From assembly GCA_023129325.1 (NCBI GenBank), contig JAGMCI010000017.1:13252-77251 (forward strand): 64,000 bases of DNA, in the 5' to 3' direction. Origin of the DNA: a candidate division WOR-3 bacterium. GTDB lineage: Bacteria > Hydrothermota > UBA3073 > JACQXS01 > JAGMCI01. Under the pieces are notes generated by a model. The model saw only the letters and a program-made list of their open reading frames with translations. It was not told the DNA's origin and made no database searches. Shown here piece after piece: positions 21,148 to 36,523 of this stretch (the stretch's first letter is position 1; each line of letters opens with the position of its first letter). The position numbers and the translations under genes are program-made.

Positions 21148-21168
21148 TTTAAATCATTATCCATCTTT

Positions 21169-21217
21169 TGGTTAATTGGTTAATTGGTTAATTAACCACT
21201 CACCATTTAACCAATCG
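21169..21217. repeat. (GGTTAAT)x3 plus CTCACCATTTAACCA module
   Basis: An inverted copy of this module lies at 25305..25361. Confidence 0.8.
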
Positions 21218-25304: not shown

Positions 25305-25361
25305 GAACGGTGAGTGGTTAAATGGTGAGTAATTAACCAATTAACCAATTAACCATTTAAC
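25305..25361. repeat. (TAACCAAT) array plus GGTGAG module, inverted copy of 21169..21217
   Basis: GAACGGTGAGTGGTTAAATGGTGAGTAATTAACCAATTAACCAATTAACC. Confidence 0.8.
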
Positions 25362-32053: not shown

Positions 32054-34732
32054 ATGACTTATAATTTTAAAGATATTGAGGCAAGACAACAAAAGTATTG
32101 GGACCATATTGGGCTCCCTGCTCCTCCTAAAGTTCCACACAAAAAATATTATATCTTAGAGATGTATCCTTATCCTTCAGGTGACCTTCATATGGGGCAT
32201 CTTAAAAATTATGTGATAGGAGATACATTAACAAGATATAAACTAATGTGTGGATATGATATACTTCATCCTATAGGCTGGGATGCCTTTGGTCTACCTG
32301 CAGAAGAGTGTGCGATTGAGCAAGGCGTGGACCCGGAAAAATGGACTCTCCATAATATTCAAGTTTCTCGCTCAACATTCCGCCTTATGGGTATGTTATA
32401 TGATTGGGATAGAGAGATTACTACTTGCCTTCCAGATTATTATAAATGGACACAATGGTTATTTCTAAAATTATATGAACATGGCTTGGTATATCGTAAA
32501 AAAGCGTTCCAAAATTGGTGCCCTCACTGTCAGACAGTGCTTGCAAATGAACAAGTTGAGGCTGGAAGATGCTGGAGATGCGAAACCCCAGTGAGGAGAA
32601 AAGAACTAAAACAATGGTTCTTTAAAATTACCCAGTATGCTGAAAGATTGTTGACAGATATAAATAAACTCAACGGCTGGCCTGAACGAGTTAAGACACT
32701 GCAAAAAAATTGGATTGGTAAATCTGAAGGCTTGGAAATAGATTTCTCTTTACCTGCCCCGCTCCGACAAGCGAAGCGGGACGGAGATGGCAAGAAGATA
32801 CCAATATTTACTACAAGACCTGATACAATTTATGGAGTAACATTTATAGCAATTGCTCCAGAAAACGAACTTGCAAAGAGCCTTGGTAGAAACTCAAATT
32901 CAAAAAAAGAAGTCTTAAAATACATTGAAAATTCACTAAAACGAACAGAGATTGAAAGAACTTCATCAACCCGAGTTAAAGATGGAGTGAATACAGGCAA
33001 ATATGTGATTAATCCATTATCAGGTAAAAAAGCCGAAATATGGATTGCTGATTATGTCCTACCCTCCTATGGAACTGGCGTTGTAATGGGTGTCCCTGCT
33101 CACGACCAGAGAGATTTTGAATTTGCAAAGAAATACAAGATACCAATTGAAGTTGTTATTCAACCTAAAGGAGTAGGGGCGCATAGCGGCTCGACTGAGG
33201 CTTCCGTTGAGTCAGCCGAAACGCTCGCGACTCGACTGAGGCTTCCGTTGAGTCAGCCGAAACGCTCGTCGAAGCCCGAAGTCAATACGCCCCTACAAAA
33301 TATAAAACAGGCTTATGCCGAACCAGGAGTGATGATAAATTCGGGTCAGTTTAACGGTCTGGATTCAGTCAAAGGAGTAGAAAAAATAATTAAATTTGTG
33401 ACCCAAAACGGAATTGGAAGACGAAAAGTAAATTATAGGTTAAGAGATTGGTTAATATCACGCCAAAGATATTGGGGAGCACCTATTCCAATGATTCATT
33501 GTAAAAAGTGTGGAGTTGTTCCTGTTCCCTTTCATAACCTTCCAGTATACCTTCCAAAACAGGGAATCGATTTCACTCCAAAGGGAAAGTCTCCTCTTTC
33601 TTCAGTCCCTGATTTTATCAACACTAAGTGCCCAAAGTGCGGAAACCCTGCAACCCGAGACCCCGATACTATGGATACCTTTGTGGACTCTGCTTGGTAT
33701 GAGATTAGATACTTAGACCCCAAAAATGAACAAGCTCTTGTCTCAAAAAAGGAAGCCGAAAAATGGCTCCCAGTTGATCAATATATTGGAGGAGTGGAAT
33801 ATGCAACTACCCATCTCCTTTATTTTCGGTTTATCACAAAGTTTCTCTATGATATTGGAGTCCTCCCAGTAGATGAGCCAGTTGAAAATCTCTTTAATCA
33901 GGGGTTGATAAAAGATGAAACCGGGCAAAAGATGTCGAAATCAAAAGGCAATGCTGTCCCAGTAGGCCCATTTCTTAAAGAATGGGGGGCAGATATAGCA
34001 AGACTTACCATTTTATTCCTGGGACCTCCTTCTAAAGATGGAATATGGTCAGTAAAGGGCATACAAGGAGTAAGTAGATTTCTAAATAGAGTATATAAGC
34101 TTGTAAATGAAAATGCTTCTGTAGGGGCGTATGGCGACTCGACTGAGGCTTCCGTTGAGTCAGCCGAAACGCTCGCGACTCGACTGAGGCTTCCGTTGAG
34201 TCAGCCGAAACGCTCGTCGAAGTCCGAAGTCAATATGCCCCTACAAGAGGAGGAAAATTTTAAAAATACACCACTTTATAGGAAGCTTAATCTTACAATA
34301 TCAAAAGTGGAAGAGGACCTCAACTCTTTTGGATATAATACTGCTATAGCATCGCTTATGGAATTTACAAATGAACTTTATAAAACTCAAGAAAGAGGTT
34401 CCATTTTTGGGTACTCTTTAGGAGTGCTAATAAAACTACTCGCCCCATTTGCTCCCCATCTGTCTGAAGAGCTATGGCATGAGCTCGCCCATACGGGTTC
34501 AGTATTTAAATCCTGCTGGCCTGGTTGGAAAGAGGTAGAGGCAAAAAAAGTCACATTAGTGATTGAAATTAATGGAAAGCCAAGAGCTACAGTTGAGATT
34601 CCTTATGATTTAGGAGAGGAAGAAGTGAAAAAAGTTTGCTTGCATAATACTCGTATAGAAGGAAGAATTAAAGGAAAAAATATTAAAAAAATTATATTTG
34701 TTCAAAACAAGCTTATTAATTTTGTAATGTAA
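32054..34732 (+). CDS. leuS: leucine--tRNA ligase
   Basis: HIGH motif PYPSGDLHMGHLKNY, KMSKS motif QKMSKSKGN, and TTRPDTIYGVTF at the editing-domain entry. The ORF is intact despite three in-frame repeat insertions. Confidence 0.95.
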   Translation: MTYNFKDIEARQQKYWDHIGLPAPPKVPHKKYYILEMYPYPSGDLHMGHLKNYVIGDTLTRYKLMCGYDILHPIGWDAFGLPAEECAIEQGVDPEKWTLHNIQVSRSTFRLMGMLYDWDREITTCLPDYYKWTQWLFLKLYEHGLVYRKKAFQNWCPHCQTVLANEQVEAGRCWRCETPVRRKELKQWFFKITQYAERLLTDINKLNGWPERVKTLQKNWIGKSEGLEIDFSLPAPLRQAKRDGDGKKIPIFTTRPDTIYGVTFIAIAPENELAKSLGRNSNSKKEVLKYIENSLKRTEIERTSSTRVKDGVNTGKYVINPLSGKKAEIWIADYVLPSYGTGVVMGVPAHDQRDFEFAKKYKIPIEVVIQPKGVGAHSGSTEASVESAETLATRLRLPLSQPKRSSKPEVNTPLQNIKQAYAEPGVMINSGQFNGLDSVKGVEKIIKFVTQNGIGRRKVNYRLRDWLISRQRYWGAPIPMIHCKKCGVVPVPFHNLPVYLPKQGIDFTPKGKSPLSSVPDFINTKCPKCGNPATRDPDTMDTFVDSAWYEIRYLDPKNEQALVSKKEAEKWLPVDQYIGGVEYATTHLLYFRFITKFLYDIGVLPVDEPVENLFNQGLIKDETGQKMSKSKGNAVPVGPFLKEWGADIARLTILFLGPPSKDGIWSVKGIQGVSRFLNRVYKLVNENASVGAYGDSTEASVESAETLATRLRLPLSQPKRSSKSEVNMPLQEEENFKNTPLYRKLNLTISKVEEDLNSFGYNTAIASLMEFTNELYKTQERGSIFGYSLGVLIKLLAPFAPHLSEELWHELAHTGSVFKSCWPGWKEVEAKKVTLVIEINGKPRATVEIPYDLGEEEVKKVCLHNTRIEGRIKGKNIKKIIFVQNKLINFVM
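32751..32794. repeat. same family, in frame in leuS
   Basis: TACCTGCCCCGCTCCGACAAGCGAAGCGGGACGGAG encodes LPAPLRQAKRDGDGK. Confidence 0.85.
33173..33296 (+). repeat. 124-nt GTAGGGGCG...CGCCCCTAC element in frame in leuS (copy 1)
   Basis: Inverted termini GTAGGGGCGCAT / AATACGCCCCTAC. Internal 41-nt unit (CTCGACTGAGGCTTCCGTTGAGTCAGCCGAAACGCTCG plus 3 nt) present twice. Confidence 0.9.
34121..34244 (+). repeat. 124-nt GTAGGGGCG...GCCCCTAC element in frame in leuS (copy 2)
   Basis: By my alignment it differs from copy 1 at 5 of 124 positions. Same orientation and same reading frame. Confidence 0.9.
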
Positions 34733-34771: not shown

Positions 34772-35851
34772 ATGGAGTTTGTGGTAAATAAGATTGAAGA
34801 TTTAGATAAAAATTTACCCTCCAATGTGAAAAGAGTTAGAATAAACCTTCCTAATCTTGACTCAGCTGATATTGTTAATTTTGTTTCTAAGTACTTATCT
34901 TGTCTGTCTGCCCGACGTCCTGCAGGCGGGCAGGCGGGCAGGCGGGCAGGCGGGCGAATTAAAGCAAATATATCTGAACAGTCCCGACTTCAGTCGGGAT
35001 TAAGAGAGGACAGGACAATTCAGGAAGTGTGGTTAAAAAGTGATAAGTTTCCTATACTTTTAAAAAATGGGTATTTAATATTCTTCTCCAAAGGCGGGTC
35101 CCTGTCCGACAGATGGCTCGCCTCGCTGAAGCTTTGGCGAAGCGGGCAGGCGGGCGCCTCTGGCGGAAAAAACCACTCCAATGAGGTTAAGACTGGTGGG
35201 AAAAGAGGATTAGATATTTTTATAAGTAGTTTGATGCTTGGCATTTCTTTTCCTATTTTGCTTGTGAGTTCTATTCTTATAAAACTTACTTCTAAGGGGC
35301 CAGTCTTGTTCCGTCAATCCCGGATTGGCGTTAATGGAAAGTTATTTAATTTTTATAAATTTAGGACGATGCATTGTTCTAATCCATTAACCGATAGAGA
35401 TATACATCGCAATTATATAAAAAAATCTATACTTGGTAGCAATTCAGGACAATCTGTCTCTCAAACTCTTGATAAAACCAGAGCGGCAAACAAGAGAGTT
35501 TACAAATTGACCAATGACCCCAGAATAACCCCCGTTGGGAGATGGCTGAGAAAACTATCAATAGATGAACTTCCACAATTGATAAATGTCTTAAAAGGTG
35601 ATATGAGTCTCATAGGACCTCGGCCTCCAATACCTTACGAAGTTAAATTATACAGTGATTGGCACTATGTTAGGCTAATTGCCCGTCCTGGCATAACCGG
35701 GCTCTGGCAAGTTATGGGGAGAAGTCTTATTCCCTTTAATCAGATGGTATTACTTGACTTTTACTATGCAGTAAATCAATCATTTTGGTTAGACTTGAGA
35801 ATATTTTTACGCACTATCCCAATGGTCTTGTCATTGAAAGGAGCGTATTAA
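34772..35851 (+). CDS. bacterial sugar transferase (polyprenyl-phosphate sugar-1-phosphate transferase family) with repeat-rich N-terminal extension
   Basis: KRGLDIFISSLMLGISFPILLVSSILIKLTSKGPVLFRQSRIG...FYKFRTM...DPRITPVGRWLRKLSIDELPQLINVLKGDMSLIGPRPP. Confidence 0.8.
   Translation: MEFVVNKIEDLDKNLPSNVKRVRINLPNLDSADIVNFVSKYLSCLSARRPAGGQAGRRAGGRIKANISEQSRLQSGLREDRTIQEVWLKSDKFPILLKNGYLIFFSKGGSLSDRWLASLKLWRSGQAGASGGKNHSNEVKTGGKRGLDIFISSLMLGISFPILLVSSILIKLTSKGPVLFRQSRIGVNGKLFNFYKFRTMHCSNPLTDRDIHRNYIKKSILGSNSGQSVSQTLDKTRAANKRVYKLTNDPRITPVGRWLRKLSIDELPQLINVLKGDMSLIGPRPPIPYEVKLYSDWHYVRLIARPGITGLWQVMGRSLIPFNQMVLLDFYYAVNQSFWLDLRIFLRTIPMVLSLKGAY
34908..34954. repeat. CTGCCCGACGTCCTGCAGGCGGG element followed by (CAGGCGGG)x4 perfect octamer tandem, in frame in the sugar transferase
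   Basis: Four perfect octamer units at 34923-34954. It encodes SARRPAGGQAGRRAGGR. Confidence 0.85.
34982..34999. repeat. 7-bp-stem hairpin in frame in the sugar transferase
   Basis: TCCCGAC-TTCA-GTCGGGA. Confidence 0.6.
35117..35156. repeat. GCCCGCTTCGCC / CAGCGAGGCGAG-family element in frame in the sugar transferase
   Basis: CTCGCCTCGCTGAAGCTTTGGCGAAGCGGGCAGGCGGGCG encodes ASLKLWRSGQAGA. Confidence 0.8.
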
Positions 35852-36523
35852 ATGGCAGTGAGGATTGGAAAATCAGTAAAAATATATCCGGGAGTGAAAT
35901 TAGGGAACGGTTGTGTAATTTATGATTTTGTTGTTCTTGGTTTTCCACCACGAAATAAAATGGTAGGGGCGTATAGCGATACGTCCCTACAGATTGGGGA
36001 AAATGCTATTATACGACCATTTACCACTATATATGCGGGTAACCGTATAGGTGACAACTTCCAGAGCGGACAAGGAACAAGTATTAGAGAGGATAATATA
36101 ATTGGCAATAATGTGAGCGTAGGTAGCAATACTACACTTGAATTCGGAAACCGTATTGGTTCAGGGACAAGAATTCACTCTTTGTGCTTCCTTGAGCTTG
36201 TTAATGTAGGGGAAAATGTTTTTATTGGTCCAGGTACAGTTTTTCTTGATGACCCTCATCCTATGAATTGTCCCAGATATCGTGAATGTCTGGGAGGTGC
36301 AAAAGTTAAGAAACTTGTTAAGATTGGTGGAGGATGTATTATCCTTCCAGGAATTACTATTGGAGAAGCTGCTCTTATAGGAGCTGGAACTTGTGTGACT
36401 AAAGATGTTCCAAAAGGAGTAGTTGTTGTTGGACATCCAGGCAAGTTTGTTAAGAAGATTGAAGAACTTAAGTGCTATCCAGGGTTTTTTAAACGTCCTT
36501 ACCTTTGGAAGCCATATATATAA
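35852..36523 (+). CDS. left-handed beta-helix (hexapeptide repeat) sugar N-acetyltransferase
   Basis: Imperfect hexapeptide repeats run through most of the protein (IGDNFQSGQGTSIREDNIIGNNVSVGSNTTLE...). The ATG directly follows the upstream stop. Confidence 0.75.
   Translation: MAVRIGKSVKIYPGVKLGNGCVIYDFVVLGFPPRNKMVGAYSDTSLQIGENAIIRPFTTIYAGNRIGDNFQSGQGTSIREDNIIGNNVSVGSNTTLEFGNRIGSGTRIHSLCFLELVNVGENVFIGPGTVFLDDPHPMNCPRYRECLGGAKVKKLVKIGGGCIILPGITIGEAALIGAGTCVTKDVPKGVVVVGHPGKFVKKIEELKCYPGFFKRPYLWKPYI
35963..35990. repeat. minimal GTAGGGGC element (termini only) in frame in the acetyltransferase gene
   Basis: GTAGGGGCGTAT-AGCG-ATACGTCCCTAC encodes VGAYSDTSLQ. Confidence 0.8.

Follow-up and report, generated by a model that had tools for sequence, protein, structure and literature searches.

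We analysed a 64,000-nt stretch of DNA (the window) from an uncultured candidate division WOR-3 bacterium (GCA_023129325.1, contig JAGMCI010000017.1, positions 13,252 to 77,251 of the forward strand), in which a forward-strand gene at window positions 34772-35851 encodes a monotopic phosphoglycosyl transferase of 359 aa. The open reading frame (ORF) combines an N-terminal domain and two insert blocks with a PglC-like catalytic domain, and its GC-rich repeats are likely to represent hairpin elements that occupy two linkers of a real N-terminal domain and are translated there as disordered loops. The source genome is a metagenome-assembled genome (MAG) of 2.02 Mb in 57 contigs, with a GC content of 36% and a completeness of 89%.

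The catalytic domain starts at K144-R145 (35201-35851, forward strand) and is delimited by PF02397, alignments, AlphaFold2 and Foldseek; it features a re-entrant helix and a conserved D265-E266 pair. PF02397 (Bac_transf) matches aa 144-353 with a score of 202.6 bits (Pfam cut-off 27), and AlphaFold2 models a helix at residues 136-173. D265 and E266 are invariant across the alignments; in PglC this Asp-Glu pair is catalytic. A Foldseek search with the catalytic part retrieved Campylobacter concisus PglC (8g1n, 8e37) with E = 4e-14 to 1e-13, a TM score of 0.79 on the target and 36-38% identity. The two enzymes share the catalytic fold and the Asp-Glu pair, whereas PglC lacks an N-terminal domain and the enzyme described here carries a domain of ~75 aa, with no Pfam or NCBIfam match, ahead of the re-entrant helix. 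A preliminary description of this DNA had assigned the gene to the first committed step of an exopolysaccharide (EPS) pathway; this is plausible for one glycan, but the Bac_transf domain is also covered by matches at three other places in the same genome.

The sequence upstream of KRGLDIF had been described as ~160 aa of repeat mosaic. It is in fact 143 aa (429 nt) long, and recognisable repeats account for only ~146 of the 429 nt; about 75 aa form a conserved non-repeat domain that is also present in orthologues. Rather than a mosaic, the N-terminus is a genuine domain with two blocks of inserted sequence. The best database matches are transferases of 278-304 aa that align across the whole query. 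We prepared a codon alignment of the query and the genes of seven relatives, together with a separate protein alignment. These transferases are regarded as positional orthologues because relatives of the order share the gene arrangement leuS-transferase-(hexapeptide acetyltransferase)-GFO/IDH/MocA oxidoreductase; leuS adjoins the transferase at the loci of nine relatives, and the downstream genes are present wherever the loci extend far enough. The conserved module reads MELVINxxEDL...VKIDIPNLxxKDIVNLVLKY, a 5-aa linker, (D/E)VWVKTxxF...KNGYLIF, ~10 aa and KR, and the query matches it to either side of two blocks absent from the relatives. The first half of the domain (aa 1-42; 34772-34897, forward strand; 29% GC) has a strand-helix-strand-helix order, and the second half (aa 86-107; 35027-35092, forward strand; 26% GC) consists of two strands (EVWLKS..KNGYLIFF), both as judged from the orthologue alignment and the predicted local distance difference test (pLDDT). 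The GC content of the repeat parts is 82% and 73%, compared with 26-29% in these N-domain segments.

Identity to the three closest orthologues is 43-49% in the N-domain (75 columns), compared with 64-69% in the catalytic domain, and BLASTP of residues 1-143 against the orthologue N-termini gave E = 1e-18 to 2e-14, with an alignment that bridges block 1. A database-scale search with residues 1-143 alone returned the query itself as the sole passing match, and the homology of the N-domain was established instead by pairwise BLASTP and by alignment over the full length. No Pfam or NCBIfam family was found for the N-domain, either in the query or in insert-free orthologues, and a Foldseek search against the PDB gave no significant match to it. 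The enzyme in this bacterial order bears an unannotated cytoplasmic N-terminal domain of ~75 aa. Comparison with orthologues upholds the part of the preliminary description that saw an extension in frame with the enzyme, here with a conserved domain, and replaces the mosaic with extra sequence that is confined to two linkers.

The structural model points to the same boundaries. AlphaFold2 (21 sequences; mean pLDDT 76.7) yielded block-mean pLDDT values of 89-95 for residues 1-40 and 89-92 for residues 81-100, and the residues with a pLDDT below 50 (45-67, 73-78, 110-113 and 115-139) coincide exactly with the inserts.

Insert block 1 (34898-35026, forward strand; codon alignment and low pLDDT) adds ~39 codons after '..VSKY', where orthologues have a 5-aa linker after '..VLKY'. 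It opens with a copy of a 24-nt hairpin element, CCTGCCCGAC-N4-GGCAGGCGGG, here TCTGCCCGACGTCCTGCAGGCGGG (34907-34930, forward strand), one of 49 copies in the genome at no more than one mismatch, the closest of which have the loop ATCCT. The sequence CTGCCCGACGTCCTGCAGGCGGG, previously placed at 34908-34930, is present there. The four perfect CAGGCGGG octamers that had been noted at 34923-34954 are borne out by Tandem Repeats Finder (TRF), which reports a forward-strand (CAGGCGGG)x4 tandem with a period of 8, 4.2 copies and 100% match; a comparable octamer tandem appeared in 0 of 100 shuffles, and the CAGGCGGG tandem occurs nowhere else in the 2.02 Mb. Unit 1 of the tandem is the 3' arm of the 24-nt element, and units 2-4 (24 nt) are a local, frame-neutral expansion. 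Further downstream, the hairpin reported at 34982-34999 was also recovered (forward strand, 18 nt, TCCCGAC-TTCA-GTCGGGA; TCCCGACttcaGTCGGGA, TCCCGACTTCAGTCGGGA), with a DNA folding energy of -6.9 kcal/mol (z = -3.7). It belongs to a TCCCGAY...RTCGGGA family with ~55 loci in the genome (110 strand-wise matches).

Insert block 2 (35093-35200, forward strand; alignments and pLDDT) includes a diverged linker and adds ~29 codons between '..LIFF' and 'KR', where orthologues have ~10 aa. Comparison within the family revealed a nested composite of 54 nt (35101-35154, forward strand), in which a 24-nt element (CCTGTCCGACAGATG...GCAGGCGGG) holds a 30-nt hairpin in its loop. Five 54-nt composites are present in the genome, four with the inner hairpin of block 2 and one with a different inner hairpin; the best match to the block-2 composite, at C4:46062-46119, has 96.6% identity over 58 nt. 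'Empty' 24-nt copies with the same AGATGG loop are found elsewhere in the genome. The inner hairpin, GCTCGCCTCGC-TGAAGCTTT-GGCGAAGCGGGC (35116-35147, forward strand; 3' arm also written GGCGAAGCGG, and earlier designated the GCCCGCTTCGCC family), has ~30 BLAST copies and is also found alone, outside a 24-nt host, and within other hosts. The 12-mer GGCGAAGCGGGC occurs 25 times in the genome, and the family copy previously assigned to 35117-35156 is confirmed. The composite is followed by a 12-nt hairpin module, CGCCTCTGGCGG, and AAAA (35155-35170, forward strand; 16 strand-wise matches), and the same module stands directly after the 24-nt element at C37:33268, C30:30258 and C48:9343. The predicted translation of the inserts includes ARRPAGGQAGRR and WLASLKLWR. 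All recognisable GC-rich pieces of the inserts belong to dispersed families of this genome, with copy numbers far above chance.

The 24-nt family is distributed over many contigs, and a reversed control pattern gave 0 matches, compared with the 49 of the true pattern. Relatives contain far fewer copies (3, 8 and 1 in three genomes, 0 in 27 others; control 0 everywhere). Copies start with (T)CCCTGCCCGAC and end with GGCAGGCGGG, have conserved arms and a variable loop, and lack a GTAG or CGTC end tag; a distinct GTAG-tagged family is present in the same genome, for example at 35963-35990. The consensus folds as CCTGCC/GGCAGG with a small loop, with a stability not above that of shuffled sequences (z = -1.1). 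In 46 of 47 copies the element measures 21, 24, 45, 54, 75 or 81 nt, each of these lengths being a multiple of 3, and 26 of the 35 basic copies sit 60 nt or more inside a stop-to-stop ORF of 120 codons or longer. The longer forms (45, 54, 75 and 81 nt) hold other hairpins in the loop. Higher-order nesting, with two hairpins or a hairpin within a hairpin, was seen at C11:~2405-2486 (81 nt), C45:13981-14056 (75 nt) and C9:136176-136221 (45 nt).

Orthologous transferases carry inserts of their own. In one (G005, L006) a GC-rich insert of unrelated sequence follows 'LKY', in the same linker as block 1, and in two others (G007, L008; G009, L007) a 24-nt GTAG-tagged hairpin stands just before 'KR'. 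These unrelated inserts in relatives mark the two linkers as permissive, repeatedly hit sites. The orthologue of a same-family relative (G001, L002) has no N-terminal inserts, but its catalytic domain has a variable loop with an insert of ~30 aa (..LQNDLGIDCFAIACNDSIGVARNDRQPLLP..). The G005 orthologue has a further tandem-repeat insert near its N-terminus (codons ..KPNDINELNDINKPND..).

The ORF at 34772-35851 runs through all four repeats, and its start agrees with the MELVIN... N-termini of the orthologues. The two N-domain halves and the catalytic domain share one reading frame in spite of the ~200 nt inserted between them. After codon 1, in-frame canonical starts are located at codons 4, 19 and 86, and then at codons 154 and 155, inside the re-entrant helix; no in-frame ATG, GTG or TTG lies between codon 86 (GTG, 35027) and codon 154. 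The preliminary description had found no alternative start just before the domain, which holds for the interval between codons 86 and 154 and needs to be qualified by the in-frame GTG at codon 86. At least block 2 must therefore be translated, because no canonical start is available between residue 86 and the catalytic domain. The earlier suggestion that the extension is translated gains support from the AT-rich flanking segments, which align with the orthologues in the catalytic frame, and from the lack of a usable start after the last insert. Judging from these sequence features, the repeat-bearing extension is very probably translated, and the simplest reading would have translation begin at the ATG at 34772 and proceed through both blocks.

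The most likely mechanism is one in which small GC-rich hairpin elements, from genome-wide, stop-free families, landed in two permissive linkers of the N-domain. With insert lengths that are mostly multiples of three, they would be translated as disordered loop extensions of ~39 and ~29 aa. Block 1 would stem from one 24-nt element whose 3' arm, CAGGCGGG, was probably lengthened by replication slippage by a net three units (24 nt), with the 18-nt hairpin after it. In block 2, a 30-nt hairpin would have entered the loop of another copy of the 24-nt element to give the multi-copy composite, which is then followed by the 12-nt module. The inserts would accordingly be tolerated passengers and not functional parts of the enzyme.

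Several points weigh against this proposal. Parts of both blocks have no match elsewhere in the genome, namely the AT-rich segments 34955-34981 and 35000-35026 of block 1 (27 nt each, ~52 nt) and the tail of block 2, and the folding energies of the GC-rich blocks are no better than those of shuffled sequences (z ~ -1.2). Neither a target-site duplication nor a mobilising enzyme was identified for the inserts, although an ambiguous GC is seen at the nested site, and none of the four PF01797 (Y1-transposase-like) genes in this 89% complete genome has these repeat motifs within 700 nt. In addition, translation through the inserts is something that we infer, and their functional neutrality is an assumption.

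As an alternative, the octamer tract would have a regulatory function for the initiating transferase, having arisen by expansion of a mobile-hairpin arm and acting either as an ON/OFF switch or as an mRNA G-quadruplex; we consider this improbable. In the first form, (CAGGCGGG)n would be a slipped-strand contingency locus, in which the gain or loss of one unit turns off the transferase and one surface glycan, and which is ON at 1, 4 and 7 units. Such a switch is conceivable because only these unit numbers keep the frame: the ORF is open with 1, 4 or 7 units, and 0, 2, 3, 5, 6 or 8 units lead to a stop after 52-87 aa. Selection for an open frame would leave the present state, with three units added to one arm. 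The perfect 8-nt unit is repeated four times in the 5' part of the ORF, and phase variation typically targets genes like this one, which initiates glycan assembly. Precedents are icaC of S. aureus, which switches with a handful of tetranucleotide units (PMC4117637), and neuO of E. coli K1, which is ON at heptanucleotide numbers divisible by 3 (PMC13001214); both resemble the present gene in that the coding sequence of a surface-polysaccharide gene holds a tandem whose unit length is not divisible by three, and in that a full-length protein results at every third repeat number only. They differ in that copy-number variation and reversible phenotypes were measured there and only four units are present here, and in that the present tract originates from an arm of a hairpin element with dispersed copies. 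As for the second form, the sense strand of the tract (GGG-N5-GGG-N5-GGG-N5-GGG) matches the canonical G-quadruplex consensus, as one of 23 such motifs in the genome, and a G-quadruplex could possibly form at this position. If either form were true, selfish hairpin elements would seed new contingency loci in surface-glycan genes of this lineage.

Several observations on the octamer tract make a switch unlikely. Four units make a short tract, for which an origin within a mobile hairpin is the simpler explanation. The genome contains 56 perfect tandem arrays with units of 4, 5, 7, 8, 10 or 11 nt, and ORFs, housekeeping genes included, read through 29 arrays of this kind with no convincing OFF state, which indicates a genome-wide repeat habit and not a dedicated switch. 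The array at C48:744-770 was considered as a gene broken at a tandem array and was rejected, as this heptamer array lies between two genes; (GAAGTAA)x3.9 fills the intergenic gap there and provides the stop codon of the upstream gene. Metagenome contigs scanned for 1-4 units of the tract flanked by exact anchors gave no match, and the 90% cluster of the protein holds one member sequence, the next relative being 49% identical. Two other public records contain no variant and are uninformative: GCA_030643605.1 and ERZ23498859 are 100% identical to the window over two ~21-kb stretches and one ~18-kb stretch, and are thus from the same population and not independent. In the 7-kb locus around the gene, these records show one mismatch.

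A second alternative would place the repeat-laden N-terminus outside the functional protein, with a start further downstream (GTG86 or a non-canonical codon) and an upstream domain in decay. N-terminal REP palindromes in other bacteria often prove to be extragenic owing to mis-annotated starts (PMC3733652), an in-frame GTG is available at 35027, and the ATG at 34772 has no obvious Shine-Dalgarno sequence before it. However, both halves of the N-domain are 43-49% identical to the orthologues and in frame despite ~200 nt of insertions, and the fold modelled by AlphaFold2 needs both of them. The AGGAA near GTG86 abuts this codon without a spacer, and translation from it would still cross block 2, given that codons 86-154 have no ATG, GTG or TTG between them. 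We therefore regard a downstream start as very unlikely. Least credible of all is that the tandem and composite inserts are assembly artefacts (collapsed or chimeric GC-rich repeats), for although the source is a 57-contig MAG in which dispersed repeats make mis-joins conceivable, no repeat module reaches the length of a sequencing read, both blocks leave the frame intact, and the locus or its contig has the identical base sequence in two other public records, though these are probably from the same reads.

The preferred reading, of hairpin elements translated within linkers, has parallels elsewhere, and we judge in-frame hairpin inserts to be a known type of event, as seen with intragenic repetitive extragenic palindromic (REP) sequences and with Rickettsia palindromic elements (RPEs). 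REPs with GTAG or CGTC tags are imperfect palindromes of 20-40 bp with many dispersed copies, some of which, alone or in groups, are contained entirely in ORFs and contribute 20-80 additional aa (Di Nocera, De Gregorio and Rocco 2013, PMC3733652). The elements described here are similar in that they are short, dispersed, imperfect palindromes in ORFs, with several inserts possible per gene. The 24-nt family differs in having no GTAG or CGTC end tag, in being mostly intragenic (26/35) where REPs are mostly extragenic, in having lengths that are multiples of three, and in a loop that hosts other hairpins. It also differs from REP/REPIN systems, as no RAYT gene flanked by the 24-nt family was found among the four Y1-transposase-like genes.

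RPEs are likewise palindromes inserted in frame into unrelated protein genes, at sites compatible with the protein fold (PMC10969869), and in the transferase the codon alignment and the AlphaFold2 model place the inserts in low-pLDDT loops between confidently modelled elements. RPEs differ in their length of ~150 bp and their conserved peptide, compared with modules of 12, 18, 24, 30 and 54 nt here, and they come from another lineage and have no sequence relationship to these modules. As a further lead, the small dispersed repeats (SDR) of cyanobacteria, attributed to Elhai et al. in 2008, are reportedly hairpins of ~20-30 nt that can nest in other repeats; they belong to a different lineage and differ in sequence.

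Repeats of other kinds are present in the neighbouring DNA. The hexapeptide acetyltransferase gene directly downstream (35852-36523) contains an in-frame GC-rich hairpin with a GTAG end, GTAGGGGCGTATAGCGATACGTCCCTAC, at 35963-35990, which is read as ..MVGAYSDTSLQ... Upstream, leuS (32054-34732) features two near-identical, in-frame, GC-rich tandem inserts of 41 nt x2 (33186-33268 and 34134-34216; TRF). Two octamer arrays, (TTGGTTAA)x3 at 21168-21193 and (AATTAACC)x3.9 at 25331-25361, are mutual reverse complements, and with the adjoining ~25 nt included the two make up an intergenic inverted pair that encloses ~4.1 kb with exbB-exbD-exbD-tonB and a lipoate-ligase-like gene. By annotation, the region 2654-24408 of the window encodes Por_Secre_tail (type IX secretion sorting) proteins and a SusC-like TonB-dependent receptor, a gene content suggestive of the FCB group.

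The locus provides a clean, well-bounded example of very small hairpin repeats colonising coding sequence. A single gene displays the basic element, the tandem-expanded element and the nested composite together, all of them frame-neutral and all in linkers where relatives hold unrelated inserts. What the locus contributes is a dissection of the 24-nt family with its nested composite and multiple-of-three lengths, an origin for the octamer tandem in an expanded element arm, and a conserved, unannotated N-domain. For annotation, the long N-terminus is real and is not to be trimmed. Should the octamer tract prove variable, it would offer a natural example of how the arm of a mobile element can become a phase-variation tract.

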